Source: Bacteroidales bacterium (GTDB lineage Bacteria > Bacteroidota > Bacteroidia > Bacteroidales > VadinHA17). From it: a DNA stretch of 64,000 nt. How positions within the stretch are numbered: position 1 is the first letter of the stretch; the number at the start of each line of letters is the position of its first letter. A program made the position numbers and the translations under genes. Below the pieces are notes generated by a model that did not search any database, was not told the DNA's origin, and saw only the letters and a list, made by a program, of their open reading frames with translations. Positions 931 through 18,255 of this stretch are shown piece after piece. The stretch is taken from contig JAGNKY010000016.1 in NCBI GenBank assembly GCA_017999895.1, positions 2,888 through 66,887 of the forward strand, read 5' to 3'.

Positions 931-1212
931 TTAAAGATGAGCAGCACGATATTTTTCCAGATAAGTATCCAGTAACGACCGGAACATCTTGCCATGATTC
1001 GGATATTTCAAATGAAGCAGCTCATGCAGAATGACCTTAAACCTCAACTCTTCAGGTTCGTCGAGCAATTTTTTATCGAATGTCAGCCTGCCCTTACCCG
1101 AACAACTGGCCCACTTCCTCTTCATCGCCTGAATATGTATTCCCACCGGCTCAACACCTACTTCCCTGGCCAGAGTCAGAACATCTTCCTTGAATTTTTC
1201 GGGTGTTGTCAT
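931..1212 (-). CDS. short DUF45/YgjP-like (M48-type) zinc metallohydrolase, type I R-M associated
   Basis: 93 aa with KWASCS...HELLHLKYPNHGKMF (HExxH plus downstream H). The ATGA start overlaps the hsdR stop (1209-1212). It corresponds only to the C-terminal half of typical ~230-aa DUF45 proteins. Confidence 0.7.
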   Translation of the reverse strand: MTTPEKFKEDVLTLAREVGVEPVGIHIQAMKRKWASCSGKGRLTFDKKLLDEPEELRFKVILHELLHLKYPNHGKMFRSLLDTYLEKYRAAHL

Positions 1213-4160
1213 ACCGCAATAACGCCTTTCAGTATCTTCATTATGTGCTGAGCAATTTCCGTAACTTTGTCAACCTCATCTATGCCCGAACTATAAATAA
1301 CCTGATAGAGCTTGTTCCTGAACTCCCTCTCATATTTCTCACTTCTTTGCCAGTGCGGATACTTCCGTATCACCTCCCGCATCTGATTTGCCATAGCCTC
1401 GGCATCTTTTAATCCTCTTTCCTTCAACATCCAGTATATAGTGAAAACCTCGGCAGGCATCTCTTTTTCAATCTGTTCAGTCTGAGCGGAATTGATTTCC
1501 TCTATTATCTTTTTCAGCTCCTCTAATGTCTCTACCGTGTTCTTCTGCCTGTTCTCGTATAGCTCCACAAGCAGTTCTGCTCTCTCAGCAATGGAAATCA
1601 GATAGGGCGACTCACTGCTTCGCGTTCCGGCAGTTCTTTCGATGCTTTTTATCAGATTGAATATTTTTTCGGTGTCAGATGCTTTGCTTTCTTCTATCCT
1701 TCTCAAGGTATTCTCATCTATCTCATAAACATCCAGAGTCGGTCCGATAACATCGCTCCTCGTATATTCCCTTACAAGCATCGCAGTCTTCCCGGTCAGT
1801 TCCCTGTCAATAATGGTTCCCCTGTCATAATTTTCTTTCAGGATTTTATACATCCTCGAAACTGTTTCGTAATCATCTATGTATGGCCTCAGGAAATTAT
1901 CCGGTGAGATAATCTCATAGATGTCTGATAGTTTTTTGAACCAGTTGTAAAATTCCTGCCTTTCCTGTTCGTCCCTGAAGCGCTCCAGCACCTCCTCAAC
2001 GGCCTTATCGCGCTCCTTCCCCTCGATGATTACAAGATATTCCTCTTTTGCCGTTATCATCTCTCTTTCGAATCTTTCCTTCAACACTTTCACATCGCGG
2101 ACTATCCCTTCGATGTCGTGAGAATCGAAAGCCAGCGCCTTTTCGAGATTGTCGAAGATGCCGACGAAGTCAAGAACAAAACCCGACGACTTGCTTCTTC
2201 CCTTATCATCTTCATAGGGTCTGTTCACTCTGGCGATAGCCTGCAAAAGCACATGATCCCTCATTGGTTTGTCGAGGTACATACAGTAGAGTATGGGCGC
2301 ATCGAAACCGGTAAGGAGCTTCTCTGTAACTATCAATATCTTCGGGAGCTCATCAGGTTTCTTGAAAGCTTTCCTTATTCTTTTCTCATCCGCTTCAGAA
2401 AGATGGTACCGTGCAAGCTCTGGCGGGTCGTTGTAAAACGGACTGTAAACAACCTTCGAATAATCGGGCGGCAAATATTTATCGAGCTCTTCCTTGTAGA
2501 TGGCGCAGGCTTCCCTGTCAACTGCAACCAGGAAAGCTTTGTATCCCATCGGCTCGATGTTGTTCCTGTAATGGTCAACAATGTATGAGATAACCTTTTC
2601 GACCCGCTCCCTGTTCTTCAGCATATTCCGGAGGGTAACGGCTTTCTCCAACACTTTATTGAGCGCTTCCACGTCGCTAATTCCCTGAGCCTCTGCAACA
2701 TCAAGGAACTCCTTTTCGAGCAGCTCTTTCTCCACCTGCAGGTTATTCGGAGCAAGCGTGTAGTACAGAGGCACTGTAGTACCATCCTCTATTGATTCTG
2801 AGATGCTGTATTTGTCAAGGTAGCCATGGGGCGGATCGTCCCTGCCGAAGGTGATGAATGTTCCTTTACCGTATTGTGTCTTATCTATCGGAGTGCCGGT
2901 GAAGCCAATGTATGCGGCATTTGGCAGAGCTCCCATCAGGTAATTGCCCAGTTTCCCGCCGGTGGTTCTGTGAGCCTCATCCACCATAACGAAAATATTA
3001 CTCCGGATGTTGATGTTTGCAGGTATGCCTTCGAACTTATGTATCATGGTGACAACCAAACCCCGCCTGTCGCCCGAAAGAACGTTTTGCAGATGCTCCT
3101 TGCTTCCGATGACTTCCACATCCTCTATGCCCAGAGACTTTATATTTCCGAAGAGCTGGCTCTCGAGCTCGTTTCTGTCAACGAGCATGATGACCGTTGG
3201 ATTTTCGAACAATGGATTTTCCATAATCTTCCGGGCGGCAACAATCATGGTATAGGTTTTGCCTGAGCCCTGTGTATGCCATACAAGGCCTCTTTTCTTT
3301 TTCGTATCCTGCGCCCTCTCCGTTATCTTACTCACTGCCCTCATCTGATGAGGCCGCAAAACAACCTTCCTGAGCTCATCGTCCTGCCGGGTGAACATTA
3401 TGAAGTCAGCAAGCAGTTTTATCACCCTTTCCCTGTCGAAAAACGTCTTTACCAGATTTTCGAAGTCGCCGGCTGATTCTTCCTTCCAGTTGAACAGAAG
3501 TTTTTCCGATGTGTTCCATGTTGCGCCGTAGTAATATTTCAGGATATGAGTCAATGTATATATCTGCATAACGGCCATCAGTTCGGGGCCTTCTCTGTGA
3601 TATCTCTTCACCTGCTCCAGAGCCTCGCTTACCCCCTCTATCTTATGTGCGGCTTTCGTCTCTACGAACAAAACAGGCAGGCCGTTGATAAGAAAGACTA
3701 TATCAGGCCGGATGGTTTTGTTGCCGCTGGTAAACACAAACTCGTCGGTGACGTGAAAGGTGTTTCTGTTGACATCTGCGGTATCGAGAAATTTGATGTT
3801 TCTCTCGCGTTTCTCGCCTGGAACGAACACTGTCTTAATCCCCTTCAGGTATTCCCATGCTGTGAAGTTGCCTTCGATGTTCGGCAGTATGTTACCAAGT
3901 TTCCTGATAATATCTTCGGCCATCAGGTTATCCATGAAGTCGGGGTTGAGACGTTGCATCTGGTTGATGAAGATTTCCCTGAACACTATGCCGGTACTGC
4001 CGCCTCTCAGTCTCAGGGCGTCGTCGGGCTTTATGTATTCCCAGCCGAGCCGTAGAAAAATCCTGGTGCCGTCGGGCGAAATATATTCTGCCGATTGTTC
4101 CTGCACGTAGTCAATGACAGGCTTCTGAACCGAATATCTTTCGCCACCCAGTGAGCTCAT
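1209..4160 (-). CDS. hsdR: type I restriction enzyme R subunit (HsdR)
   Basis: 983 aa. N-terminal PD-(D/E)xK motif (PDIVFLINGLPVLFVETK). SF2 motifs HTQGSGKT, MVDEAHRT, FTGTPI and QAIARVNR. Overlaps the hsdS stop by 4 nt. Confidence 0.95.
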   Translation of the reverse strand: MSSLGGERYSVQKPVIDYVQEQSAEYISPDGTRIFLRLGWEYIKPDDALRLRGGSTGIVFREIFINQMQRLNPDFMDNLMAEDIIRKLGNILPNIEGNFTAWEYLKGIKTVFVPGEKRERNIKFLDTADVNRNTFHVTDEFVFTSGNKTIRPDIVFLINGLPVLFVETKAAHKIEGVSEALEQVKRYHREGPELMAVMQIYTLTHILKYYYGATWNTSEKLLFNWKEESAGDFENLVKTFFDRERVIKLLADFIMFTRQDDELRKVVLRPHQMRAVSKITERAQDTKKKRGLVWHTQGSGKTYTMIVAARKIMENPLFENPTVIMLVDRNELESQLFGNIKSLGIEDVEVIGSKEHLQNVLSGDRRGLVVTMIHKFEGIPANINIRSNIFVMVDEAHRTTGGKLGNYLMGALPNAAYIGFTGTPIDKTQYGKGTFITFGRDDPPHGYLDKYSISESIEDGTTVPLYYTLAPNNLQVEKELLEKEFLDVAEAQGISDVEALNKVLEKAVTLRNMLKNRERVEKVISYIVDHYRNNIEPMGYKAFLVAVDREACAIYKEELDKYLPPDYSKVVYSPFYNDPPELARYHLSEADEKRIRKAFKKPDELPKILIVTEKLLTGFDAPILYCMYLDKPMRDHVLLQAIARVNRPYEDDKGRSKSSGFVLDFVGIFDNLEKALAFDSHDIEGIVRDVKVLKERFEREMITAKEEYLVIIEGKERDKAVEEVLERFRDEQERQEFYNWFKKLSDIYEIISPDNFLRPYIDDYETVSRMYKILKENYDRGTIIDRELTGKTAMLVREYTRSDVIGPTLDVYEIDENTLRRIEESKASDTEKIFNLIKSIERTAGTRSSESPYLISIAERAELLVELYENRQKNTVETLEELKKIIEEINSAQTEQIEKEMPAEVFTIYWMLKERGLKDAEAMANQMREVIRKYPHWQRSEKYEREFRNKLYQVIYSSGIDEVDKVTEIAQHIMKILKGVIAV

Positions 4161-5485
4161 GCCACGACCTCCATTTGATTGACCCTTATTTTTGCAGTCA
4201 TAAGATTATGCAAAAGACTTTTGAACAAATCATCGAGAGCTTTTTTCCTGTTCTCCTCAGCTTCGATTTTAGCATCGATGGCAGAAAGAATGGAAGCAAT
4301 TTTTTGCTGGGTAGGAAGCGGAGGGAGAGGGAGATTTAAATTTGCAATTTTTTCTACACCAATATATTTCATGGTTGATTGACTCGATTTTGTATTTATT
4401 TGATTTTGCATTTGAGTTGAACTAAGCAAATGTTTTAAATATTCTGAATTTATGATTTCCTTTTTAGGCTTTATCAACGCTAATTGAACAAAAATGCTAA
4501 AATCATAATTTACATTAACTTTAGCAGATAGCCCCAGTGTCCCAACTTTACTTAAAAGGACATCATCCTTTTCTGGCATACATCGTTTAATTAAAGAATT
4601 GTGCTCTTCTTTTGAGATGAATTTACATTTTGAAAAATCAATCTGACCATTAACTAAATTTGTGATAGTAATAAATGGTATTCCAGTTTCAATATATTTT
4701 GGCGTTTTATGTGTACCATCTGTAATTTTTCCCCTTGCCACCTCTCCCAGTCTTACCACCTCCCATTCTTCTGGCACTTTTCCGATTTCTGTTTCCTTGA
4801 GCGGAACGTTTTCTGTTTCCTCTGGCGGCACGGGTCCGTAGGTAAACAGGTGTTTCATCATGGATTTTTTGAGGGCTTTTGTGGCGTCTATCACCGCCTC
4901 GGTTTTCTCCTTTGCCTCCTGCACCGCAGAAAGCACAGCGGCAATCTTTTGCTGCTCGGGGAGTGGGGGGAGTGGAAGAGCGAAATTCTCAAGGACATGT
5001 TTAGGTAATCTTTGCCGTCCAGTTGAACCTTCCATTTTTTCAGCCAAATTCACTCTTATAGGATCAACTTTTAAATAGTAATACAAATATTGGGTAATTA
5101 CATTTTCATTTTTAGGATGTAATGCCCATATTTCTGTAGTAGCATATCCATAATCTAATGGCAATTTATCTAATATTGCTTGTTTTCCATTTTCAAAAGA
5201 TGGTGTAATTTTTGCAATAATGATATCATTTTTAAAAACAAATGAACCACTAGTAATCTCAGAATATCTCTTTTCTTCCCAAGATTTAATAGATTGATTT
5301 GTATCCGATATCATCTCCATTGGAATAAATGGAATTAAATCATCTTTATTGATTTTTAAATTGTTCGGTTTTCTACTAAATTCAAAAACATCTCCCAGTC
5401 TCACTACTTCCCATTCTTCTGGCAAAGGTCCGAGTTCTGTCATTTTGTAGCCCTGCGGTAGTATGTCGTTGGAGGTTGAGTTCAT
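4157..5485 (-). CDS. hsdS: type I restriction enzyme specificity subunit (HsdS), two target-recognition domains
   Basis: 442 aa. Two AT-rich variable domains alternate with two conserved helical repeats (LPLPPLPEQQKIAAVLSAVQEAKE... and LPLPPLPTQQKIASILSAIDAKIE...). N-terminal LPEEWEVVRLGDV motif. Confidence 0.9.
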   Translation of the reverse strand: MNSTSNDILPQGYKMTELGPLPEEWEVVRLGDVFEFSRKPNNLKINKDDLIPFIPMEMISDTNQSIKSWEEKRYSEITSGSFVFKNDIIIAKITPSFENGKQAILDKLPLDYGYATTEIWALHPKNENVITQYLYYYLKVDPIRVNLAEKMEGSTGRQRLPKHVLENFALPLPPLPEQQKIAAVLSAVQEAKEKTEAVIDATKALKKSMMKHLFTYGPVPPEETENVPLKETEIGKVPEEWEVVRLGEVARGKITDGTHKTPKYIETGIPFITITNLVNGQIDFSKCKFISKEEHNSLIKRCMPEKDDVLLSKVGTLGLSAKVNVNYDFSIFVQLALIKPKKEIINSEYLKHLLSSTQMQNQINTKSSQSTMKYIGVEKIANLNLPLPPLPTQQKIASILSAIDAKIEAEENRKKALDDLFKSLLHNLMTAKIRVNQMEVVA

Positions 5486-5489
5486 AATG
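5459..5489. repeat. direct repeat copy 1 (hsdS start region), identical 31-mer also at 9692-9722
   Basis: tagtatgtcgttggaggttgagttcataatg is present at both sites. Weaker similarity extends inward to ~5410 and ~9641. Confidence 0.9.
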
Positions 5490-5573
5490 GTAATAAGGGC
5501 TCATTTAGTACATTTATGTTTAACCTTATTAGAGCTATATTCCCATAAGATATTTTGATTGTACGCATTATTT

Positions 5574-8500
5574 TTACTCCATGAAATTTAATCTTTTCCA
5601 TATTTCTATATATTCCTTAGCATTTAATGGCGAATTTACAGGAATAATAGTCTGAATATCTCTTTCTGTTTTTGAGGACAGCCATTTTTGAACATTTTCT
5701 GCATTATGATTAAGAAAATCTTCGCCAAATTCCTTTTTATACTTTTCACCCAATTTTGTGGCAATAGTTCTTGGGACATTGGCTTTTCTCATAAGAACAG
5801 CCTCATTTGTACTAACCCCATAATAAATATATGCAGGTATATTTAGAATCTTTTTTTTCTCGCTTTCAGAAAGGTAATGCCAATCAATACCGCTGGTTGG
5901 CATTTTCTGCAATGCAGAAATACCCCAGCTTGCTGAAGTAGTAATAACCCTGTATAGTGCCTTACTTATTATTTTAATATTTTCATTGGTATCCCCTGAT
6001 GAAATTAGTTTTTTGGCAATATCAGAAATCGTATCACCATTTACCCAGTAAATAATTAGTCGTGAAATACTACTCTGGTCTAATACTTTATTTCCTATTT
6101 TGATATCTTCAAGAGATTTTCGTATCTCATAGGTGTTCAGCATAATTCCTACCAGTTCCTTCATTGTTCGATTCTTCTCAGAAAATAGCTGTTCTTTTTC
6201 CCAGTCATCTGAAGAAAACTTGTATTGAGAAAGCCTTCCAATCATTTGCTTGACTGTAATTGTAGAAAAACCAGTTGAGTCAGCTCTGTCAGCATCCTCT
6301 AATGATAGTGTAGAAACATATTCGTTCAATTTTCTAAAAAGATATCGCTTTTTTTCCTCTGAGATTTGATGATACCCCAGAGTATCCTGCAATTTTTGTT
6401 CTAATTGAGTTATGAACTGATCCAGGTCATTAACCTGTTTTCTTAAGTGAGAAATATATTGTAAAACAGCCGACCATCGTTCATCAAAATACAACCATTC
6501 TGCGAAATCTCCATCAGGAAGATTCTGAGCTTTTTGCAATAAATCATTCAACTGAGATAATAAATCCTCTGAAGCTTTTTTAACATATTCTGAGATATTT
6601 TTTAAATCTTTATCATTTTTACTTGCAATTCCAATCCATCCCATGCCTTGTTGCGCCACTCTGCCGACTCTTCCTGCAATATTCCAGAAGTCGCGGGAAG
6701 GCATCGGACCTTGAAAAGGATAATTATATGAACCCATAATAACAGCAGATGCAGGAAAATTTATTCCCTGTGCAATTGTTGTTGTTGCTACCAACACTTT
6801 CAGTTTTCCTTTTTCCATCAATAATTCTATAAGTTGTCTGATATCATCCGGTATAGCAGATGAGTGAATCGCAATTCCCTTATCAAGATATTTAACCAAT
6901 GGGAAATTTTCTCCTAATTCAGCTTTTACGAATTTTTGCAGTAATTTAATCTCTTCATCAGTTATAATATCGCTAAGAGAATTATATAGATAATCAGCTA
7001 TCTGGAATGTTTCATTAACTTCTGCAGCAAGTATTATGATTGGATTTTCGGTATCCAGCACATGTTTGGAAGTAAGTTGTACTATCTTTATTTTTGAATT
7101 AAAATTCTCTTTATTTTCAGTAATATTATTAATAATCGGTATCTTTTCTGAGATTGTATATGACCCTTTCACGGTATTTAACGTTTGTAAAGTAATCGAG
7201 TAGTTTTTTCGTTTACCATCCACGCCTAATGCGCCAATTACTCTTTCATTCGGTTGCCACCAATCTAATTCAAGGTTAACTGTATATCCCCTTTCACCTC
7301 CAAGCCAATCAGCTATTTCATCTGCATTTGGAATATCCGGGGTTAACAGGAGAAAATTTACCTCTTTACAATCGTTTTTTATTGTGGATAGGAGCATCTC
7401 AAGGTGTAATCCTCTGCTTTTATCTCCAATGTTATGTGCTTCATCAACGACGGTGAGTACCAGAGGTCTTTTGTCTGTCGTCCCTAAACCCTGTCTGATC
7501 AATAAATCGAGCTTTTCATAAGTGGTTACCAGAATATCAAAATTGGTATTATCTCCGTTATTATCGATTAGACCATATTCAAAGCCATCAATTTCTACTG
7601 CTCCGCTTGCCTTTTCAACTTGAATACCGATACTGGTCAAATCCTGCTTAAATCTTGCATAAATTTGATTAATTAAACTTTTCGTAGGTACAACATAAGC
7701 AACCCATCCACCACTTTGTTTAAAAACATTAAGAGCTTGAAGGATTTTATATTCAGCTATTAAAGTTTTACCACTTGAGGTTGGCAAGGATAAAATTATA
7801 GATCTGTAGGCAGGATTTAAAACTTCGCCTTTTAATATAGAGTATTTTTGTGGATACAACAGTTCCTGTATAGATTTACTATCTCTTTTAGCAATGAATT
7901 TATTAAATTCACTTATAAAGTGGTTTACTCCTCGAAGATTATACCAGATTGTATTTCTTATTAGTTTTATGGAAAACTCTTTAAAGTATTTATAAAGTAG
8001 AACCAATGAGATATTTTGAGATAATTCTGCAAATTCAGAAGCAATTCTAAAATGATACTCCATTTTGTTTTCTATGTCAGCAGGATTTCCTTCGATCAAA
8101 AAAGTACCAAGTAATTCAATTGATTTAGCAAAATGATATAAGGATACAATTTCAGCACTTCCATAGGGTTGAGAATCTTCTCTAACTCGTTTTAAAAAAT
8201 TAGCTTCAAATATTTCTTGATCTTCTCTAAGCTTATTTATGCTTTCGACTGCTTTTTCTATATCTTTCCAGCTATTTTTAACAACCAGAAAATATAATGC
8301 ATTAAAAATCGTATAGAGAAGTCTTTCATTCCATTTTTCTGGAATTCTAATGTTAATTACATGATTTTTTATCGATAACAGGTAGTTCCTTACATAATGG
8401 GAATGTTCTCCAAAATAACCAAAAATGATTATTTTAAAGAGTTCCATTATATTAATTTGGTCATTTAAATCATAATCAAAACATGTAGCAATATCAAAGT

Positions 8501-8729
8501 AAGTAATACACAAAGAAAGGAACTCATTAGAATCTTTTTGATTCCAATAGTTGTTTATCTCTAATTCACAAATTTCCTTTGCCTTTTGTAATAATTTTAT
8601 CTCACTCGCGGACAAACTAATAGCATTAAATCTTCTGGAAAGTCTTGCTTTTTGTATGAGTTCTGACAGGCCTTCAAGAATATCCTGATAATTTTGCTCT
8701 AATATTTCATACTTCTTTATAGCGCTCAT
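5574..8729 (-). CDS. Ski2/Hel308-like (COG1204-type) SF2 DEAH helicase with long N- and C-terminal extensions; HamB-like candidate
   Basis: 1051 aa. Motifs: PTSSGKT (aa 316-322), VVPTKSL, VVDEAHNIGDKSRGLHLE (427-), LLLTPDIPNADEIADWLG, VLVATTTIAQGINFPA, NIAGRVGR. About 310 aa N-terminal and ~360 aa C-terminal are unassigned. Overlaps the upstream gene by 23 nt. Confidence 0.85.
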   Translation of the reverse strand: MSAIKKYEILEQNYQDILEGLSELIQKARLSRRFNAISLSASEIKLLQKAKEICELEINNYWNQKDSNEFLSLCITYFDIATCFDYDLNDQINIMELFKIIIFGYFGEHSHYVRNYLLSIKNHVINIRIPEKWNERLLYTIFNALYFLVVKNSWKDIEKAVESINKLREDQEIFEANFLKRVREDSQPYGSAEIVSLYHFAKSIELLGTFLIEGNPADIENKMEYHFRIASEFAELSQNISLVLLYKYFKEFSIKLIRNTIWYNLRGVNHFISEFNKFIAKRDSKSIQELLYPQKYSILKGEVLNPAYRSIILSLPTSSGKTLIAEYKILQALNVFKQSGGWVAYVVPTKSLINQIYARFKQDLTSIGIQVEKASGAVEIDGFEYGLIDNNGDNTNFDILVTTYEKLDLLIRQGLGTTDKRPLVLTVVDEAHNIGDKSRGLHLEMLLSTIKNDCKEVNFLLLTPDIPNADEIADWLGGERGYTVNLELDWWQPNERVIGALGVDGKRKNYSITLQTLNTVKGSYTISEKIPIINNITENKENFNSKIKIVQLTSKHVLDTENPIIILAAEVNETFQIADYLYNSLSDIITDEEIKLLQKFVKAELGENFPLVKYLDKGIAIHSSAIPDDIRQLIELLMEKGKLKVLVATTTIAQGINFPASAVIMGSYNYPFQGPMPSRDFWNIAGRVGRVAQQGMGWIGIASKNDKDLKNISEYVKKASEDLLSQLNDLLQKAQNLPDGDFAEWLYFDERWSAVLQYISHLRKQVNDLDQFITQLEQKLQDTLGYHQISEEKKRYLFRKLNEYVSTLSLEDADRADSTGFSTITVKQMIGRLSQYKFSSDDWEKEQLFSEKNRTMKELVGIMLNTYEIRKSLEDIKIGNKVLDQSSISRLIIYWVNGDTISDIAKKLISSGDTNENIKIISKALYRVITTSASWGISALQKMPTSGIDWHYLSESEKKKILNIPAYIYYGVSTNEAVLMRKANVPRTIATKLGEKYKKEFGEDFLNHNAENVQKWLSSKTERDIQTIIPVNSPLNAKEYIEIWKRLNFME

Positions 8730-9528
8730 TTTGTGGCCTCTGGTTTAAAATTTCAATCCATTTTTCTTGTTTTATTGGTAAATATACTGCTACAAGTTGT
8801 AATCCCGTGGGTTCTAATATAGTATCCCTCAAATTTTCATATACTTCTTTCAAATCATTTTCAATTGCTTCTGTATCACGTATAAGAACACCTATAAGCT
8901 GATAATTGTTATCAGGGTTATAGTATGCTTTAATAGCTGATTGAAAATCTTTTTTTATGTTGTCATTAAGAGCTATTTTAGTTTGCAAATAACGAATTAA
9001 ATCGAATCTTTTTTGATGGTTACTATATAATTCTTTTAATTGTGAAATCATACCTGTTTCTTTTTGGGTCAAAACCTGTGGAGGATTTTTTTCTTCGGAA
9101 GATGTTTTCACTTCGCCAAAAAGAAAAAGAATCTCACCCTTATGCTCAATAAAACCAACTAAATCAGCCCCTGTTTGATTACCTTCAGGATTTTTTGAAT
9201 CTCGTCGTTTATTCCAATGAAACCCGCATTTGAAATTACTTTCAAGAACTACCTCTGCTATTGCTTCTCCAATCTCAAAATTTTTAACATTAATATCACT
9301 ATTTGAAAGCGCCTGTATATCAAGCAAAAGATTTTGAGATGATGAAAATCCAGTATCACTCTGCAAATTTTTTAATATGTATAAAAAATCTTGTTTCTCT
9401 GGCTCATCAACCAATCTATTTTTCACATCAGTACAAAGCAAAGCTATAAATTCACTTTCGTCATTGAATGAAATACCACAATATCCATTCATAAAGGCAT
9501 ATGGATTACTTTTATAGTTCTCTACCAT
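8707..9528 (-). CDS. PD-(D/E)xK-like putative nuclease; HamA (DUF1837)-like candidate
   Basis: 273 aa. D122 (TGADLVGF) then E139-V-K141 (LFLFGEVKTS), with the hydrophobic-strand context of restriction-endonuclease-fold cores. Translationally coupled to the helicase. Family membership was not verifiable by eye. Confidence 0.5.
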   Translation of the reverse strand: MVENYKSNPYAFMNGYCGISFNDESEFIALLCTDVKNRLVDEPEKQDFLYILKNLQSDTGFSSSQNLLLDIQALSNSDINVKNFEIGEAIAEVVLESNFKCGFHWNKRRDSKNPEGNQTGADLVGFIEHKGEILFLFGEVKTSSEEKNPPQVLTQKETGMISQLKELYSNHQKRFDLIRYLQTKIALNDNIKKDFQSAIKAYYNPDNNYQLIGVLIRDTEAIENDLKEVYENLRDTILEPTGLQLVAVYLPIKQEKWIEILNQRPQNERYKEV

Positions 9529-9637
9529 AACTTAAACCCTTTTTGTTTCAATATACTGGTTAATTTCATGGTTGATTGTCCCTTTATCTAATATAAGACT
9601 TTTGATTCATCAATATTATTCAAATTTAATTTTTTTC

Positions 9638-9718
9638 TCATTTCACCACCTCCTGCAGCGCTCTGGGTTCTGTCATTCTGAAGCCTTCTGATAGTATGTC
9701 GTTGGAGGTTGAGTTCAT
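9638..9718 (-). pseudogene. truncated hsdS 5' stub (26 codons then stop)
   Basis: Encodes MNSTSNDILSEGFRMTEPRALQEVVK*, compared with the intact HsdS N-terminus MNSTSNDILPQGYKMTELGPLPEEWEVV. The first 9 codons are identical at the DNA level. Confidence 0.8.
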
Positions 9719-9722
9719 AATG
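9692..9722. repeat. direct repeat copy 2 (see 5459-5489)
   Basis: Identical 31-mer in the same orientation as copy 1. The two copies bracket the nuclease-helicase cassette. Confidence 0.9.
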
Positions 9723-9953
9723 ATGTAATCCTATGCGTTATCTGTATTGTTTTGCCCATGAATTCACTCGTGGTCGAATTAGTCCATTGCCTCGATACGC
9801 CATTCAGGCACCTTAGCGATCGAATTCTAGACAGCCGCTGAAGTGAGCGATAGCTCGTATCGAAACCACTGCTTTGAATTCTTCCTATTCCTAACGAATA
9901 TTTTCGCATTAATCTTTTATTACTTTTAGCTGCCCATTAGTCAATGATTTATT

Positions 9954-10746
9954 TTAAAATATTTGAGATGGTCTAATATGACTGGACAATTTATTAATCA
10001 AATATAAGTGTTTATTAAGGTATTCTGTTAAAACTGCATAATGATTTTCAGCAAACATATCTGCAAATGTTCTGCGGAAATCCCAAAGGATCCCATCACT
10101 GATACCACTGTTACCAACTACACGTCCTGCAAGGCATGGCATATAGGTAGTAAGGTCATAGCCTCGGCGGTTTTTGAATTCAGTCAGCATATTATCGGTC
10201 CAGTTCTGCGTTGAATAAGTGGTAAAAGCCTGCTTTATCCTCCCACCTGTTAATTCTTGCTCCTGAATAAAATTTCATCTCGTTAAAAGTGTAAGCCGAC
10301 TCAGGCACAGTAGTGGTTTCTGCCATCACCCCGGCAGGTCTCATTGGTGCACCTGTAAATTCCAGCCTGAAAAATCTGGCAGTTGTTTCAGCGAATGTAA
10401 TTGTCATGACTTTACCTGAACGGTAAAGCTGAGCTCCGGGTAACGCTATAATCGTTGTGTAGTTTACTCCATCGTTGCTACATTTAAGTGTACCTATAGG
10501 TATGCCGTTTCTGTTAGCGAGTGTAAGTGCCTGAGCTTTAAAGGATTTTTCACATGAGAATTGTATCCGTACAATTTTCCTGTCATTTCCGGATCTTATT
10601 GTTAAGGATGTATTAAGATCATCATCCAGAAGAGCTTCTCCGTTGATAACACCTGTTCCTGTGGTAATGTAATTTTGGCTACACTTTGATTTACTATATT
10701 TGTTGAATGAGTAATTATCGTTTATACATTGCGATGTTATTCTCAT
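9954..10746 (-). pseudogene. decayed glycoside-hydrolase-like gene fragment with a discoidin/F5-8 type C-like domain (frameshifted, 3'-truncated by the IS fragment)
   Basis: Two abutting ORFs (10192-10746 and 9954-10190) lie in different frames. The first has a beta-sandwich-like segment (...ARFFRLEFTGAP...). The last ~20 codons of the second are read from IS-end sequence. There is no credible N-terminus or signal peptide. Confidence 0.5.
9965..10017 (-). mobile_element. solo ~53-nt fragment of the IS3-family element left end
   Basis: gagatggtctaatatgactggacaatttattaatcaaatataagtgtttatt matches 12386-12438 (the terminal inverted repeat of the complete IS) with 2 mismatches, in the same orientation. 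No transposase follows it. Confidence 0.8.
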
Positions 10747-10754
10747 AAGTCAGG

Positions 10755-12164
10755 TTATTTTTCGACCGGCATTCTTGCTTCTGTTTGGACAAGCCACTCT
10801 TCCAGCTTCCGGTTAAGTTTTCTCACTCTGTGGGATTTGGTTGAAGCCAGATCGTTGGTTTCTGAAATATCCTTCTTAAGGTTATAAAGTTCGAAAGGTG
10901 TACCTTCGTATCTTTTGATAAGTTTCCAGTCTCCGTCACGGATGATGCTGTATGGTACTATATCATTTACCCTGTAGTGCGGGAAATGCCAGTAAAGCGG
11001 GACGTTTTTCAGTTTTTTGCCGGAAAAGACAGGGCTTATATCGCGGCCGTCGATGATCCTGTCCGGAAGCGGAGTACCGGTAATTTTGCAGATTGTCGGC
11101 AGGAAATCGATACTGGAAACAAGCAGATCACATTGTGTTCCGGGTTTTATCACATTTTTCCAATATACAAACATCGGTTCCTTTATGCCACCTTCATAGG
11201 GGTATCCTTTTCCCGAGCGCAATGGTTTATTGCTTGTGGATCCGAGAAAACCGCCGTTATCTGAAAAGAAGATTATTATGGTATTATCCATTAATCCCTC
11301 ATTCTCCAGAACATTAATTAATTTTCCGACAGCATCATCCAGATGCTCAATCATTGAGGCATACACCGCATTGGTCTGATCATCGGTCTTAATTTTGGCT
11401 TCATATTTTTTTATTGTTTCGGGTTTAGCCATCAGAGGTGTATGGACTGCATAATAGCACATATTTATAAAAAAAGGTCTGTCTTTATGTTGCTTAACTA
11501 CCTGTATCAGTTCGTCAGCCAGGCGATCTTCGAGGTATTCTCCTTCTTTTCGTGGTTTAAGGTTTGGGAAAGAGACTCCTTTTTTATCAGCATAAGGATC
11601 AAAATAATTGACCGGTTGTCCCATATCGCAACCGGCAATATTGACGTCATAGCCTTGTTTTTCCGGATAGTAATCATCCGGTCCGAGGTGCCATTTTCCG
11701 ACATGGCAGGTGAAATAGCCTTTTGTTTTCAACAGTTCTGCGATGGTAATCTCTTCCAGATCCATCCAATATGGATTTGAGGGGGTTCTCAGTTTTTTGT
11801 CACCGTTTTCTTCATAGGGTGGAGGTGTTTCGACCTTACCACCCGGGATCTGGAACCTGGCGCGTATCCAGTCTGTTACTCCTATTCGTGCAGGATATCT
11901 TCCTGTCTGAAGCGAAGCACGGGTAGGAGAGGAGACGGCACAGGCAGCATAAGCATTATTGAAAATCATGCTTTTAGCAGCTAGCCTGTCGATATTTGGT
12001 GTTTCATAAAACCGGCTTCCGTTGAATCCCACATCCTTCCAGCCGAGATCATCAACAAGCAGCATGATGATATTTGGTTGTTCCTTTGGAGTTTCCTGTG
12101 CATTTGCAATGCCTCCTGCCAGAATTAACAATCCGGCGGAACAGGATATTAATTCTTCTCTCAT
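10755..12164 (-). CDS. sulfatase (Ser-type formylglycine motif)
   Basis: 469 aa. Signal peptide, then LLVDDLGWKDVG and SSPTRASLQTGRYP (S-x-P-x-R signature), then HVGKWHLG. Confidence 0.9.
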   Translation of the reverse strand: MREELISCSAGLLILAGGIANAQETPKEQPNIIMLLVDDLGWKDVGFNGSRFYETPNIDRLAAKSMIFNNAYAACAVSSPTRASLQTGRYPARIGVTDWIRARFQIPGGKVETPPPYEENGDKKLRTPSNPYWMDLEEITIAELLKTKGYFTCHVGKWHLGPDDYYPEKQGYDVNIAGCDMGQPVNYFDPYADKKGVSFPNLKPRKEGEYLEDRLADELIQVVKQHKDRPFFINMCYYAVHTPLMAKPETIKKYEAKIKTDDQTNAVYASMIEHLDDAVGKLINVLENEGLMDNTIIIFFSDNGGFLGSTSNKPLRSGKGYPYEGGIKEPMFVYWKNVIKPGTQCDLLVSSIDFLPTICKITGTPLPDRIIDGRDISPVFSGKKLKNVPLYWHFPHYRVNDIVPYSIIRDGDWKLIKRYEGTPFELYNLKKDISETNDLASTKSHRVRKLNRKLEEWLVQTEARMPVEK

Positions 12165-12487: not shown

Positions 12488-13279
12488 TCATGCAGCATTC
12501 TGATATACAAGGAGTGGCGGGTTGTTCCCTATTGAAGAATGATCCCGCTTTTCATTGTAATAGTGAATAAATTGTGAACAGATGTGGTATAATTCACTAC
12601 CCGTCTCCGGTTGCTCAATGTAAATTTTTTCATATTTAATGGTTCTGAAGAAACGTTCAATATAAACATTATCAATGGCCCTGCCTTTGCCATCCATTGA
12701 TATCCTGACTGTTTCAAGGCTTTTGACATATCCGGTATATTCATCCGATGTAAACTGGCTTCCCTGATCTGAATTTATAATCTCCGGTCTTCCATATTTG
12801 TTTACCGTCATTTTCAAGGTATTAACAACCCATTCAGATTCCATCGTGTTAGACAAACTCCACACCAGGATGCATCTACTGTAAATGTCCATTATAGCCA
12901 GCAGATACATATATCCTTTAAGCATCGGAATATAGGTAATATCAAGCGCCCACACCTGATTTGGTCTTTGAATAACCAGATTACGAAGCAAGTAGGGATA
13001 TTTATACCTGGCAGAATCTATGATGGTAGTACGTGGCCTGCAATAAACCGTTTTTAAACGCATGATCTGCATCAGAGTACGTACATGGCACCGACCAACC
13101 TGATGACCTTTTTTACGCAACTCATTGGTCATCCTGCGCGTCCCACGCGTGGGATCCTCAAGGTAAAGCCTGTCAAGTTCCTCCATTAGCTTCAGGTCTT
13201 TCGTACTGGCTTTTGATGGCGTATAATAGAGCGAACTCCTGGTAATCCCCAAAAGTTCACATTGGTAACATATACTCAT
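12488..13279 (-). CDS. IS3-family transposase OrfB (DDE integrase domain)
   Basis: 263 aa. LSICYQCELLGITRSSLYY-type HTH, and a DDE triad context (WALDITYI, INSDQGSQFTS, YIERFFRTIKYE). Confidence 0.9.
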   Translation of the reverse strand: MSICYQCELLGITRSSLYYTPSKASTKDLKLMEELDRLYLEDPTRGTRRMTNELRKKGHQVGRCHVRTLMQIMRLKTVYCRPRTTIIDSARYKYPYLLRNLVIQRPNQVWALDITYIPMLKGYMYLLAIMDIYSRCILVWSLSNTMESEWVVNTLKMTVNKYGRPEIINSDQGSQFTSDEYTGYVKSLETVRISMDGKGRAIDNVYIERFFRTIKYEKIYIEQPETGSELYHICSQFIHYYNEKRDHSSIGNNPPLLVYQNAA

Positions 13280-13612
13280 TTACCCTTCTTCACGATCAAC
13301 CATCTGTCTGCGTGTATCTAATGGTATCATAGAATTTTTTTTTAACCAGTTGATGTCTACCGACAGTTGACCGATCTGATGAACCAACTCCTCATTTTCT
13401 TTCTTAAGCTTCTTTATCTCTGATGACTCATCCTTTCCGCTTTCGAAAACTTTCCCCGCATTGGCAAGAAACTCTTTCTTCCAATGTGTGATTAAGTTCG
13501 GATGAACCTGGTAAATCTGGGCAAGCTCAGATATGGTCTTGATTTCTTTTATTGCCTCTATGGCAACCTTGGCTTTAAATTCAGCCGTAAATGTTCTTCT
13601 TGAATTTTTCAT
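13280..13612 (-). CDS. IS3-family transposase OrfA (HTH + leucine zipper)
   Basis: 110 aa. RRTFTAEFKAKVAIEAIKE..TISELAQIYQVHPNLITHWKKEF. An A9 tract (T9 on + at 13335-13343) lies near the 3' end. Its TAA stop (13280-13282) directly abuts the orfB ATG in the same frame. Confidence 0.9.
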   Translation of the reverse strand: MKNSRRTFTAEFKAKVAIEAIKEIKTISELAQIYQVHPNLITHWKKEFLANAGKVFESGKDESSEIKKLKKENEELVHQIGQLSVDINWLKKNSMIPLDTRRQMVDREEG

Positions 13613-13906: not shown

Positions 13907-15703
13907 TTATAACATTTCATACCATGTTTTTATCTTGATAGCCATTAACTTTCTTCGTTCTTCAAGGAAATCCTCATATTCCGGAATATTACCATTCAAA
14001 AAAGCCTCTGGTAAACAATGGACATTAAAATTATCCCTTAATTCTTCCATATCAGTAATTCCACCATATTTTTTTTCACCACCATTACATTGTTCAATAA
14101 TCTCAGGGATATAATTTTGTGGAGGTTTATCACCAATAACAATATTTATTTCACTCTGAGCAATAACAAAATTAGCAATCTGGTTATACATACCGCGTTG
14201 CATACCCTTTTTCTTTAAGTATTCCTTTGGATAAATATGATGCACGTCCCCTCTATTTAATATCAAATCTCGTACTGTAATATCCCGTGAAAGAAATCCT
14301 TTATCACCCAATTTGACCTGAGCAGCTTTATATGCAAGGAAATAAGGACTTTGTGCAGAAGAAGTATTCATTAACTGAGGGAGCATTCCTGTCCAAAAAC
14401 TTTCAGGCAATTCAGTATCACAAACGGTATCAATATATTTCTTTAAACCGTTTGTTCCTATTTGACGTATATCTATATCAAAAGCAGTTTCAGGACTACC
14501 TGCATAACGCCCTCGTAGAATTGACATTACATACCATCGTCGAACCAAATGCTCTATATCATCAGAAGATAACCCTTCCTTTTTACCCAATAAATACACT
14601 ATATATGCAAAATTTAAGGCATTTTGTCCTCCAATTAGATTACTGGTTATGAAACCAGCAGAACGTATTATCATTACGAAACGCTCAAAATTACTCTTGT
14701 TAATAAATGCCAATACTCCTGCTTTTAGTTTTGCAAATGATTGCTCTGCAATAACTTCTTCATATTGCTTTGTTTCAAAATTTCGACCTGAAATTAACGC
14801 AACAAGATCTTGTAGTTTGCCTCGATCAAACTGTGAAGTGAAAGCTACACGTAACATATCCGTATAAGTTGGATCATAAATATCATCATTAATGTCTTTT
14901 AACCATTGCATAGCCTGAAAATAATCTGAACTTGCAAAAACTGGATCATTTTTTTTGATTTTATCGTAAAATTCAGGGGTAACAGCAAGATGGCAAAAAT
15001 AATCAATAGCCTTTCGTAAAATATTCCCTCCATAGGTTTCGTTTACCGCTATTTTTGACATGGCAAAATCCGCCTGCGACAATTCCAATCCAGCCGAATT
15101 TACACGGATAAATATCTCTGTTACTGTTTCTATATCAAGATCATCAGCCAACTCAATTATTCCAACATTGTTATGTATTATATTTTTTAACTTTTCAATT
15201 GCCGAAAAGATGTCATCTTCTGATAAACCAGGATTTTTATCACAATAATCCTTAACCAGCTTCAAAATACTTGTGTTAGGAGAAAACATTTTAGAAATAT
15301 CATCTATCCACTTTACATCCTTACTAATAGCAGGGTTGGTAACTTCAAAGCGCTCTTCCTGAGGATTAAAAGCTATTCGGATATTTACTGTATCATAATC
15401 CTTTGTAAGTACTTCCCTAGCTAAAAGTGAAGCCATAAGTGCAGTAATACGTTGCTGTCCATCGATTAGAATACGCTTGCCTTTAGATATAGTTCCATCT
15501 TTCAGCTTGATATTGGGATTACGCCACACAATAAGAAACCCTATTGGAAATCCTTGATATAGGGAATCTAAAAGATCACGAACCTTTGTAGAATTCCATA
15601 CAAAGGGGCGCTGTATTTCAGGTATTGCAATTTCTCCCGATTTTACCCATGTAAGAAGGGTTTCTACTGGTTGTGGGTTTACTGAATAACGTTGTGTTGA
15701 CAT
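13907..15703 (-). CDS. DUF262/DUF1524 two-domain protein (GmrSD-like type IV restriction endonuclease candidate)
   Basis: 598 aa. N-terminal [10 protein letters not shown]...GFPIG...[11 protein letters not shown] (ParB-like DUF262 NTPase motif). C-terminal [11 protein letters not shown]...[14 protein letters not shown] (His-Me/HNH-like DUF1524). Confidence 0.8.
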
Positions 15704-16033: not shown

Positions 16034-16570
16034 TCAAATATAAATTTCATCTGTTTTCCATTTTTTAGGATTATCAATTATATATTTCCGAATTCGATTT
16101 AATTCATCATTATTTCGAATAATGTGTTCGTAAAAATTTCGTTGCCAGACAACGTAAATATCCGTGTTGTCCGGTTTCAATATTTTGAACCCTTTGGTAA
16201 CGCCAATTTTAAATCCGCGAATAATGGAACCAATTGACCCCGGTATAATGTGTTGGTATGCGTTTTGGCGTTGGGGTTCAATATTTTGAACCCCAATAAT
16301 ATCATTCAAAACGATTATTCCATGAATATGATTTGGCATAATGATATATTCATCCAATTGTACGTGCGGAAAATGATTTGGTATTTCCAACCAACATTGT
16401 TGTGTCATTTTTCCAAATTCATTTAATCGCATTTCACCATTTAAAATTTTCCCAAATAAACATTCACGATTATGTGTGCAAAGGGTAATAAAATAAATAC
16501 CTGGTTGGGAATAATCGTATCCCTGCAAACGTATGGAACGGCGATGGTGGTTATCTGGATTGTATTTCAA
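16034..16570 (-). CDS. IS200/IS605-family TnpA-like / REP-associated tyrosine transposase (RAYT-like)
   Basis: 178 aa. HUH motif MPNHIHGII and a C-terminal catalytic Tyr context (WQRNFYEHIIRNNDEL..IRKYIIDNPKKW). Confidence 0.85.
   Translation of the reverse strand: MKYNPDNHHRRSIRLQGYDYSQPGIYFITLCTHNRECLFGKILNGEMRLNEFGKMTQQCWLEIPNHFPHVQLDEYIIMPNHIHGIIVLNDIIGVQNIEPQRQNAYQHIIPGSIGSIIRGFKIGVTKGFKILKPDNTDIYVVWQRNFYEHIIRNNDELNRIRKYIIDNPKKWKTDEIYI
16271..16296. repeat. perfect hairpin TTGGGGTTCAA-TATT-TTGAACCCCAA inside the RAYT coding sequence
   Basis: 11-bp stem with a 4-nt loop. It encodes IGVQNIEPQ in the variable linker between the HUH and Tyr motifs. A degenerate third copy is at 16173-16192. 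Confidence 0.9.
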
Positions 16571-16716: not shown

Positions 16717-18255
16717 TCATTTCCATAATCCCAACTCTTTAAGGATTGTTCTCAGTTTTTCGTCGGCTTCATTTCGTTCCTCCTCGGCTTCCTTGAGTTG
16801 TACGATGGCGTCCTCAAGGTCAAGTGTGTCGTCCTCACCGTTCTGAGCGACATAGCGTGAAGGACTGAGGTTATAGTCGTTCCGTGTTGCCTCTTCCCGT
16901 GCGATGATTTTACTTATGCCCTCTTCCTCTTTCCAGTTGAGGTATATATCGGCTATTAGGTCAATACTCTCATCCGGCAGATAGTTCTTGGGACGGCCCT
17001 TCTTAAACAGCTTCGAAGCATTGATGAGCAATATCTTTCCTTTCCTCTCGTCAGGTTTCGATTTATTGATGACCAAGATTATCCCCGGCGCCGTTGTGTT
17101 ATAGAAAAGGTTTTCGGGCAGCAGCACGACAGCCTCGACAAGGTCTCGTTCGACGAACTCTTTTCGTATATCCCTCTCCCTGTTTTTGCCGGTGTTACCG
17201 CTGCCGCGCGACACTGCGCCTGTATCGAGCACCACAGCCATCTTCCCCTGCCCGTTCAGGGAGGCGAACATGTGTTGTATCCAGCCCCAGTCGGCGGTGT
17301 TGGAAGGAGGGTATCCGGAGCCAAAGCGGTTGTACGCGTCGTTTTCATAGACCGTCTGTGAAAAATCCTGGTTCCACATCGGGTTGGCCGTTACAAGGTC
17401 GAATTTACGAAGCGAGCCCTGCGACGTGAGGAATGCAGGCCTGTTCATGGTGTCGCCGAGTGCTATCTCAGCCTCCATGTCATGGATAAAAGCGTTCATC
17501 TTTGCCATGGCGAAGGTAGAGGGCAGTATCTCCTGGCCGTAGAACTTAAGAGGCTCGACGGCGGAATCGGCGCCGTATTTCTCCCTGAACCGCAGGAAGC
17601 ATTTGATAAGCAGTCCGCCTGAGCCGCAGCACGGGTCATAAATCTCATTACCCGGTTCGGGGTTCAGGATGTATGACATCAGCACTGCGACCTCGCCGGG
17701 AGTATAGAATTCTCCGGCGCTCTGGCCCGAGCCCTCGGCGAATTTCCTCAGGAGGTATTCGTACGCTCTGCCAAGTATGTCAGCATCGACGTCGTTCAGG
17801 CCAAGCCGGTATTTATTCAGGACGTTTATCAGTTCTTTCAGTTTATCGTCGCTGATGATTCTCTGTCCGGCAGCGGTGGCGTTGAAGTCAACAGTATCTA
17901 TCACGCCCTGGAGTTTCGGGTTTTCTCTTGCTATTGTACGAACGGTATTTGTCAGGTATTCGCCGGTACCCTTCGCAGGTTGTTTTGCAAGTTCTTTCCA
18001 GCGCGTTTCAGCGGGCAGGTAGAAACGGACGAGGTCATGGTCGTATGCAACAAGTTTTTCGACAAACTCTTTTGAGCCGTAGTTTTGTGACATACGTTCG
18101 AGTTCATCTTCGAAAACATCGGAGAGGCGTTTGAGGAAGATGAGCGGTAGGAGGTAGTCTTTATATTTTGGAGCGTCAACGGGTCCGCGTATTTTGCAGG
18201 CAGCTTCCCACAGCCAGTTCTCCAGCGCCTTGATATCGAGATTATTTTCCAGCAT
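16717..18255 (-). CDS. hsdM: type I restriction enzyme M subunit (N6-adenine DNA methyltransferase HsdM)
   Basis: 512 aa. HsdM N-terminal domain (LWEAACKIRG..YKDYLLPLIFLKRLSDVFE), SAM motif DPCCGSGGLL, catalytic NPMW (NPPY-type). Visibly more GC-rich than the surroundings. Confidence 0.95.
   Translation of the reverse strand: MLENNLDIKALENWLWEAACKIRGPVDAPKYKDYLLPLIFLKRLSDVFEDELERMSQNYGSKEFVEKLVAYDHDLVRFYLPAETRWKELAKQPAKGTGEYLTNTVRTIARENPKLQGVIDTVDFNATAAGQRIISDDKLKELINVLNKYRLGLNDVDADILGRAYEYLLRKFAEGSGQSAGEFYTPGEVAVLMSYILNPEPGNEIYDPCCGSGGLLIKCFLRFREKYGADSAVEPLKFYGQEILPSTFAMAKMNAFIHDMEAEIALGDTMNRPAFLTSQGSLRKFDLVTANPMWNQDFSQTVYENDAYNRFGSGYPPSNTADWGWIQHMFASLNGQGKMAVVLDTGAVSRGSGNTGKNRERDIRKEFVERDLVEAVVLLPENLFYNTTAPGIILVINKSKPDERKGKILLINASKLFKKGRPKNYLPDESIDLIADIYLNWKEEEGISKIIAREEATRNDYNLSPSRYVAQNGEDDTLDLEDAIVQLKEAEEERNEADEKLRTILKELGLWK

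Follow-up and report, generated by a model that had tools for sequence, protein, structure and literature searches.

A probable divergent Hachiman-type nuclease-helicase gene pair of the candidate family PDC-M23 in a type I restriction-modification locus of a Bacteroidales bacterium

The mechanism of Hachiman defence is understood from HamAB of Escherichia coli ECOR31 (PDB 8VX9; PMC12278908), in which the gene of a small D/E-x-K nuclease precedes that of a Ski2-like helicase of more than 1000 amino acids (aa). It has been shown that E138/K140 of E. coli HamA are required for defence and that the NAH domain of HamB, an N-terminal bundle which related Ski2 helicases are without, binds HamA (PMC12278908). 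An OB fold has been reported only for type III-A HamB (PMC13064477). Nuclease and Ski2-like helicase are also paired in AbpAB / Cap4-fused Hachiman, which is activated by DNA damage and whose AbpA/HamA consists of an N-terminal Cap4 nuclease and a catalytically dead DUF1837 domain (PMC10732053; PMC11914072). Payne et al. collected gene cassettes that lie within BREX, DISARM or type I restriction-modification (R-M) loci, among them cassette CAS_00096 (FAM_02460>>FAM_00699; count 161), which is the PADLOC candidate family PDC-M23 (bioRxiv 10.1101/2024.01.29.577857). Here we describe two adjoining genes, A and B, from a window of 64,000 nucleotides (nt) of a Bacteroidales bacterium (contig JAGNKY010000016.1, positions 2,888 to 66,887). 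The pair lies inside a type I R-M locus and is probably a two-gene defence system of the PDC-M23 family, divergent but of Hachiman (HamAB-like) type. Its features, numbered from the first letter of the window, are as follows.

8707-9528, minus strand: gene A, HamA-like PD-(D/E)xK nuclease, 273 aa (open reading frame (ORF) list, PDC-M23A hidden Markov model (HMM), AlphaFold2 (AF2) model, fold match, family profile)
5574-8729, minus strand: gene B, HamB-like Ski2/Hel308-type superfamily 2 (SF2) helicase, 1051 aa (PDC-M23B HMM, Pfam, Foldseek)
7830-8729, minus strand: residues 1-300 of protein B, predicted all-alpha N-terminal bundle (AF2/DSSP, full-length superposition on HamB)
6615-7823, minus strand: residues ~303-705 of protein B, RecA1/RecA2 core with K321 and DEAH 429-432 (Pfam, invariant columns, PDB and Bacteroides HamB alignments)
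5574-6614, minus strand: residues 706-1051 of protein B and stop, predicted all-helical C-terminal region (AF2, PADLOC HamB models, Foldseek)

Both proteins match PDC-M23 models from end to end. Protein A aligned to PDC-M23A (PDLC04527) at 1.6e-83 (residues 14-263, profile positions 17-260 of 263), and protein B to PDC-M23B (PDLC04531) with E=0 and 1183 bits (residues 8-1048, profile positions 6-1058 of 1060). The gene order A>>B and the type I R-M setting are likewise those of the family, and no difference from it was detectable. As judged from these matches, the window pair is an instance of PDC-M23. A full-text literature search for "PDC-M23" returned no paper with the name in its main text, only a supplementary table of Payne et al.; Hachiman is not mentioned in the main text of that study (bioRxiv 10.1101/2024.01.29.577857), and no paper stating a Hachiman link for PDC-M23 was found. 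A preliminary description of this DNA had proposed either a divergent Hachiman or an undescribed pair. The first alternative is the one retained here; the second falls, the pair being already a PADLOC candidate. The same description foresaw that a link to HamA/HamB would cut the novelty, and most of it is indeed removed: the family itself is already catalogued, and its Hachiman link is one small addition here.

The two genes overlap by 23 nt on the minus strand, in the order A then B. The translation of gene A contains TGADLVGF (D122) and LFLFGEVKTS (E139-x-K141), and that of gene B contains PTSSGKT (316-322), VVDEAH (427-432), VLVATTTIAQGINFPA and NIAGRVGR. These nuclease and SF2 motifs, already pointed out in the preliminary description, are conserved among homologues. 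Columns G120, A121, D122, G138, E139 and K141 of protein A are invariant in 67 homologues; across 105 representatives at ~30% identity, E88, G120 and K141 are invariant and G87, D122, G138 and E139 are at least 90% conserved. Invariant columns of protein B (43 homologues) comprise Walker A PTSSGKT (K321), D429-E430-A431-H432, TTTIAQGINF (649-658) and AGRVGR (685-690). This conservation indicates that the motif residues of both proteins are under selection. The predicted catalytic residues of protein A are E88/E92, D122, E139 and K141. Both ORFs are full length when compared with homologues of 82-92% identity.

Pfam identified DEAD (303-463), ResIII and Helicase_C (620-691) in protein B, and more than 20 PADLOC HamB1/HamB2 models matched it (best 5.6e-58), several aligning up to residue 1020-1028 and some beginning at 174-208. 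A PDB sequence search returned Hel308/Ski2-type helicases at ~1e-31 (Hel308 9.3e-32) and E. coli HamB (8vx9_B) at 8.1e-23 over residues 309-693. An AF2 model was built on 43 homologues (predicted local distance difference test (pLDDT) 69.3, predicted template modelling score (pTM) 0.65). It has helices only at residues 5-280, two RecA domains, a beta-rich segment at 481-533 and an all-helical C-terminal third (AF2/DSSP). The top three Foldseek matches of this model in the PDB are all E. coli HamB (8vx9_B, 8vxa_A and 8vxy_B; E 1.4e-23 to 6.6e-22), with query-normalised template modelling scores (TMq) of 0.67-0.69 over 1160-1189 superposed columns. The next matches, to Hjm, Hel308 and Pol-theta helicases, reach a TMq of 0.42-0.48 because only part of protein B is matched. 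The archaeal repair helicases Hel308/Hjm give the best sequence match to the core and have the same layout of RecA1/RecA2 followed by a C-terminal helical region; however, they are ~700 aa long, cover protein B only in part (TMq 0.42-0.45) and have no N-terminal bundle. Comparison by hhalign with canonical Bacteroides HamB gave 99.8% probability over residues 204-711, and a W-x-P-x-ER-x-G segment (DWWQPNERVIG in protein B, residues 489-499) is common to both.

From the model we infer that the N-terminal bundle of protein B is the counterpart of the HamB NAH domain and that its C-terminal region corresponds to the HamB WH*/C-terminal helical region. A C-terminal OB-like barrel is not predicted in the AF2 model. 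The helicase extensions had been thought the part most likely to be new; the full-length superposition on HamB and the PADLOC HamB alignments suggest that they are therefore standard HamB domains. As modelled, protein B is HamB-like over its whole length, N-terminal bundle and C-terminal helical region included.

Pfam and NCBIfam scans of protein A gave nothing meaningful, PDB searches with the single sequence and with a profile gave chance-level matches only, and tblastn against plasmids gave no match. Its AF2 model has a pLDDT of 85.9 and a pTM of 0.84. In Foldseek searches the sole PDB match at E<=1e-3 was E. coli HamA (8vx9_A; E 6.5e-4, prob 1.0, 285 columns), followed by the endonucleases MspJI, BamHI and FokI. 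The structural comparison proposed earlier for gene A has thus found a restriction-endonuclease/HamA fold. The Pfam family HamA/DUF1837 (PF08878) was the sole family to recur among relatives of protein A, being matched by 13 of 67 (best 1.6e-6) and by 16 of 105, with long collinear stretches in those examined. Some sources already label relatives "HamA C-terminal domain-containing". A HamA-HamB fusion of Nostoc reached 27.4 bits against an HMM of 105 diverse members; an S. fredii "DUF1837 domain-containing protein" reached 17.4 bits, and a helicase-linked protein of Streptomyces 14.4 bits. The per-sequence E-values of this test (9e-11, 1e-7) were computed with Z=1. In these alignments the motifs are in register, iGEAlA, GaDLVGf and GEVKtS of the family standing against IGEAIA/LGEILA, GDDLLGF/GDDFIGA and GEAKS/PEVKTR.

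As modelled, protein A consists of one PD-(D/E)xK nuclease domain that has a HamA-like fold and in which the E...D...E-x-K site is intact. We conclude that it represents a remote branch of the HamA lineage which is missed by current models. Two other assignments were rejected. The match to Lamassu LmuA is partial and weak (1.6e-6, 26 bits, residues 137-244), and the conserved partner is a helicase and not an SMC-like ATPase. AbpAB / Cap4-fused Hachiman differs in that protein A is one 273-aa domain with an intact D...E-x-K site and no N-terminal Cap4. The Nostoc fusion is a single 1409-aa ORF on plasmid NZ_CP117771.1 (1618-5847), in which HamA (PF08878, 6.6e-12) is joined to a HamB-type helicase; it is annotated by NCBI as HamA throughout, and its HamA part is the canonical sequence most like the protein A family.

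The likeness of the whole pair to E. coli HamAB extends from the order of a small nuclease gene and a helicase gene of more than 1000 aa to the domain layout of the helicase (N-terminal bundle, RecA1/RecA2, C-terminal helical region). HamA and HamB are the best structural matches, and the catalytic positions are nearly the same: E139/K141 here and E138/K140 there, D429 here and D431 in HamB. In these respects the nuclease-helicase pair of Hachiman architecture that the preliminary description had recognised is borne out by the PADLOC matches and by the folds. The differences are a Foldseek sequence identity of 10% for the nuclease and 16-17% for the helicase, a nuclease under the Pfam DUF1837 and PADLOC HamA thresholds, and a helicase that is 123 residues shorter and without a predicted C-terminal OB-like barrel. 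Another Hachiman, on Bacteroides finegoldii plasmid NZ_OY725938.1 (annotated as HamA and DEAD/DEAH helicase), likewise consists of two overlapping genes, of 275 and 1116 aa; its HamA passes PF08878 at 53 bits, whereas protein A of the window fails, and hhalign detects no similarity between the two HamA families.

Several results weigh against a Hachiman-type assignment. The DUF1837 profile, which had been suggested as a check on the 273-aa protein, gave no match to protein A even at E<=10, nor did the PADLOC HamA models at E<=1. The relatives of protein A that do match PF08878, where examined, score 19-24 bits, under the cut-off of 25. The fold match to HamA is only moderate (TM 0.44-0.46, E 6.5e-4), and the model of protein B is of only medium confidence. 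By hhalign, the protein A family and one canonical Bacteroides HamA subfamily were not significantly similar and were partly mis-registered. The comparison used family set A1 and then the more diverse set A5, with the Bacteroides HamA represented either by one sequence or by an alignment of 25 sequences, the latter low in diversity, which makes this a weak negative. After the removal of known systems, Payne et al. kept 145 cassettes as untested "phage defence candidates" (bioRxiv 10.1101/2024.01.29.577857), and we found no experimentally tested member of PDC-M23 in the literature. Finally, the mechanism considered below is drawn wholly by analogy with E. coli HamAB.

The results on the nuclease would also fit an independent system that merely resembles Hachiman, in which a generic PD-(D/E)xK nuclease was separately recruited by a Ski2-like helicase, possibly with another trigger or substrate. 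Besides the failure of protein A on the Pfam and PADLOC HamA models and the non-significant profile-profile comparison, this explanation can appeal to the PADLOC curators, who listed PDC-M23 separately from Hachiman, and to the reach of the protein A profile. The latter extends to 451 representative clusters (50% identity) at E<=1e-3 and to 350 at E<=1e-10, and does not pull in the much larger canonical HamA family. We nevertheless regard separate recruitment as unlikely. The helicase has the full HamB architecture, including the N-terminal bundle which Ski2/Hel308 helicases are without; HamA is the single significant fold match of the nuclease, over its full length; bona fide HamA proteins align to the family HMM with their motifs in register; and the pair has the gene order and protein sizes of canonical Hachiman.

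Conservation of the pair was followed in 80 genome loci encoding a relative of protein A, three of which end at the match or within 24 bases of it. In all of the remaining loci (77/77) a relative of protein B, full-length or truncated by the contig end, lies directly downstream on the same strand. The spacing between the A and B alignments is -4 to +20 nt in the closer relatives, and where A is less identical to its window counterpart, B is too (correlation of identities over 70 loci, r=0.95). The pair occurs in Bacteroidota, Ignavibacteria, Bacillota and Pseudomonadota, among others, as well as in archaea, e.g. Nitrosopumilus, Woesearchaeota and Alkanophaga. It might be supposed that the two genes are unrelated neighbours by chance, or a decayed remnant, given surroundings that are rearranged and hold an hsdS stub, an IS3 element and truncated glycosidase genes. 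This has next to no probability left: the ORFs are full length, the catalytic motifs are all intact, and the co-occurrence of the genes as neighbours, which had been proposed as a check, together with the HamA fold refutes chance adjacency.

The largest flanking ORFs were recorded for 67 upstream and 62 downstream loci. Upstream neighbours include N6_Mtase (11/67) and Eco57I/PglX-like methyltransferases (10/67), and downstream neighbours ResIII (8/62), HsdR (3-4), GmrSD (3) and reverse transcriptases (3). The pair's neighbours are enriched for methyltransferases of R-M/BREX type, HsdR, GmrSD and reverse transcriptases. The pair therefore sits in a defence-island context, though most loci are not embedded in R-M genes. 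hsd genes of the window type were found near the pair in only 6 of the 80 loci. Four loci (L004, L007, L008 and L011) have hsdM-hsdS-A-B on one strand, and hsdR follows gene B in the three of them that extend past it; their hsdM and hsdR are ~50% identical to those of the window. On a Rhizobium etli plasmid (L083, 1740-5712), ThiF-like and Mov34/MPN genes lie beside those for a 284-aa hypothetical protein and a 1041-aa helicase, and this helicase shares 27.7% identity with gene B across 83% of its length. The two may represent a more remote offshoot of the pair, here linked to genes of ubiquitin-like conjugation.

If the window pair works as E. coli HamAB does (PMC12278908), its helicase would bind the nuclease via the N-terminal bundle and hold it inactive while surveying intact DNA. 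A free 3' single-stranded DNA end, arising from phage replication or DNA damage, would enter the helicase and lead to ATP hydrolysis and a RecA2-to-bundle movement. This movement would activate or release the nuclease, which would then degrade phage and host DNA indiscriminately, resulting in abortive infection. Each of these steps is held with somewhat less confidence than the Hachiman-type assignment as a whole. Protein A should itself be the effector, its active site having been kept, unlike that of the dead DUF1837 domain of AbpAB / Cap4-fused Hachiman (PMC11914072). The assignment ties a database candidate, PDC-M23, to the mechanistically understood Hachiman and offers a testable mechanism with the mutants D122A, E139A/K141A, K321A and D429A. 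It also implies that the current Pfam and PADLOC HamA models miss a branch of HamA-like nucleases of 451 representative clusters, and that counts of Hachiman in Bacteroidota, Ignavibacteria, Firmicutes and some archaea are consequently too low. Otherwise little is added, since architecture, motifs and context are those expected of Hachiman-type systems nested in R-M loci.

The R-M locus around the pair comprises the following features.

16717-18255, minus strand: hsdM (Pfam N6_Mtase 5.7e-92, HsdM_N)
9638-9718, minus strand: dead hsdS 5' stub, 26 codons and stop (tblastn and DNA alignment with the intact hsdS start)
4157-5485, minus strand: intact hsdS (Pfam Methylase_S 7.9e-46), 88 nt downstream of gene B
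1209-4160, minus strand: hsdR (Pfam HSDR_N, SWI2_SNF2, T1R_D3-like)

The stub encodes MNSTSNDILSEGFRMTEPRALQEVVK*. Its first 23 residues (9718-9650, minus strand) are 65% identical to the N-terminus of intact HsdS (tblastn, E 7e-4), and 31 identical nt around the ATG are common to the stub and intact hsdS. The stub and the start of intact hsdS form a diverged direct repeat that brackets the cassette; the position of two overlapping minus-strand genes between a dead and an intact hsdS, as given in the preliminary description, was confirmed by the ORF list, tblastn and DNA alignment. hsdM, hsdS and hsdR are all on one strand around the cassette. The claim that the pair is nested in a type I R-M operon is upheld by hsdS and hsdR, which come directly after it, and by the gene order of a relative; hsdM, however, does not adjoin the stub in the window but is displaced from it by ~7 kb of inserted DNA.

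The relative is a metagenomic locus (L084) whose protein A is 84% identical to that of the window. There hsdM, only ~480 nt upstream of gene A, is separated from it by a short remnant; after A come B, hsdS, a 186-aa ORF, hsdR and YgjP. From this order it follows that the pair is genuinely nested in this type of R-M operon and that the window has later insertions. Window 5388-9645 (the cassette and the first ~100 nt of hsdS) and L084 9883-14142 share 90.4% DNA identity over 4260 bp, whereas identity falls to 74.6% for hsdM and to 71.3% for hsdR, and the target-recognition parts of hsdS match in patches only. The cassette therefore moves independently of the R-M genes. Diverged R-M loci appear to have swapped it, perhaps through recombination at the 5' end of hsdS, which is conserved; this would also account for the stub. 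Separate acquisition had earlier been suggested from base composition. The cassette (GC 0.31-0.33) is indeed more AT-rich than hsdM (0.512) and hsdR (0.467); however, it is only slightly below the window mean (0.371), and hsdM and hsdR are the stronger outliers.

The setting also bears on whether the pair might be a DNA-repair or R-M accessory module, that is, a Hel308-like helicase with a partner nuclease serving the R-M enzyme or genome maintenance and not autonomous immunity. The best PDB sequence matches of protein B are the repair helicases Hel308 and Hjm, and in the window, in L084 and in four further loci the pair is co-oriented with the type I R-M operon around it. A terminator scan, uninformative in that its single terminator-like site lies within gene B on the opposite strand, placed none between gene B and hsdS; a sigma-70 promoter scan, which gave fewer sites than shuffled sequence, was equally uninformative, and an Rfam scan of 5300-10300 gave no match. 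An accessory role is nonetheless very improbable: type I R-M genes lie beside the pair in few loci and the neighbours are varied, the distribution is patchy across phyla and archaea, and the cassette shows 90% identity in two loci that agree by only 71-75% in their R-M genes.

It is also conceivable, and in our estimation quite unlikely, that PDC-M23 is a distinct Hachiman clade (nuclease outside the HamA models, helicase without the OB barrel) in which nesting reflects functional coupling. On that account DNA ends or translocation intermediates made by the host R-M or BREX enzyme might be detected by the helicase, which would provide a second layer of defence. The idea is prompted by recurrent positions of the pair on one strand with hsdM/hsdS and hsdR, and between them, or next to PglX-like methyltransferases.

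Apart from the Hachiman-type pair, the R-M locus holds a number of other genes. The ~7 kb between hsdM and the stub contain an IS200/RAYT-like ORF (16034-16570), a GmrSD-type gene (13907-15703), IS3 orfA/orfB (12488-13612), an apparently intact sulfatase gene (10755-12164) and truncated F5/8-C and GH106 rhamnosidase fragments (9954-10746). The presence of pieces of metabolic genes inside an R-M locus suggests rearrangement mediated by insertion sequences. ORF 16034-16570 was considered as an hsdS stub and rejected; it looks IS200/RAYT-like instead (motifs HIHGII and YEHIIRN; Y1_Tnp weak, E 0.023). Upstream of the stub, 9720-9950 (minus strand) has three GAATTC sites within ~120 nt and does not align with the region upstream of intact hsdS; a 64-aa ORF there (9715-9909, minus strand) has no family match, and the Rfam scan is empty at this place.

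The GmrSD-type gene (13907-15703, minus strand) encodes a 598-aa GmrSD_N (DUF262) protein (PADLOC HEC-05, 8.7e-30) and is a second defence-type gene in the interrupted R-M locus. In other genomes the GmrSD-type genes counted above stand directly downstream of the pair (3/62 loci), and L006 has a GmrSD_N+HNH fusion after a PglX-like methyltransferase. Directly after hsdR, a 93-aa ORF (931-1212, minus strand) matches only the C-terminal part of the YgjP-like metallopeptidase profile (114-200 of 207). L084 has a 97-aa YgjP-like gene in the same place, and the short YgjP form therefore travels with the R-M operon.

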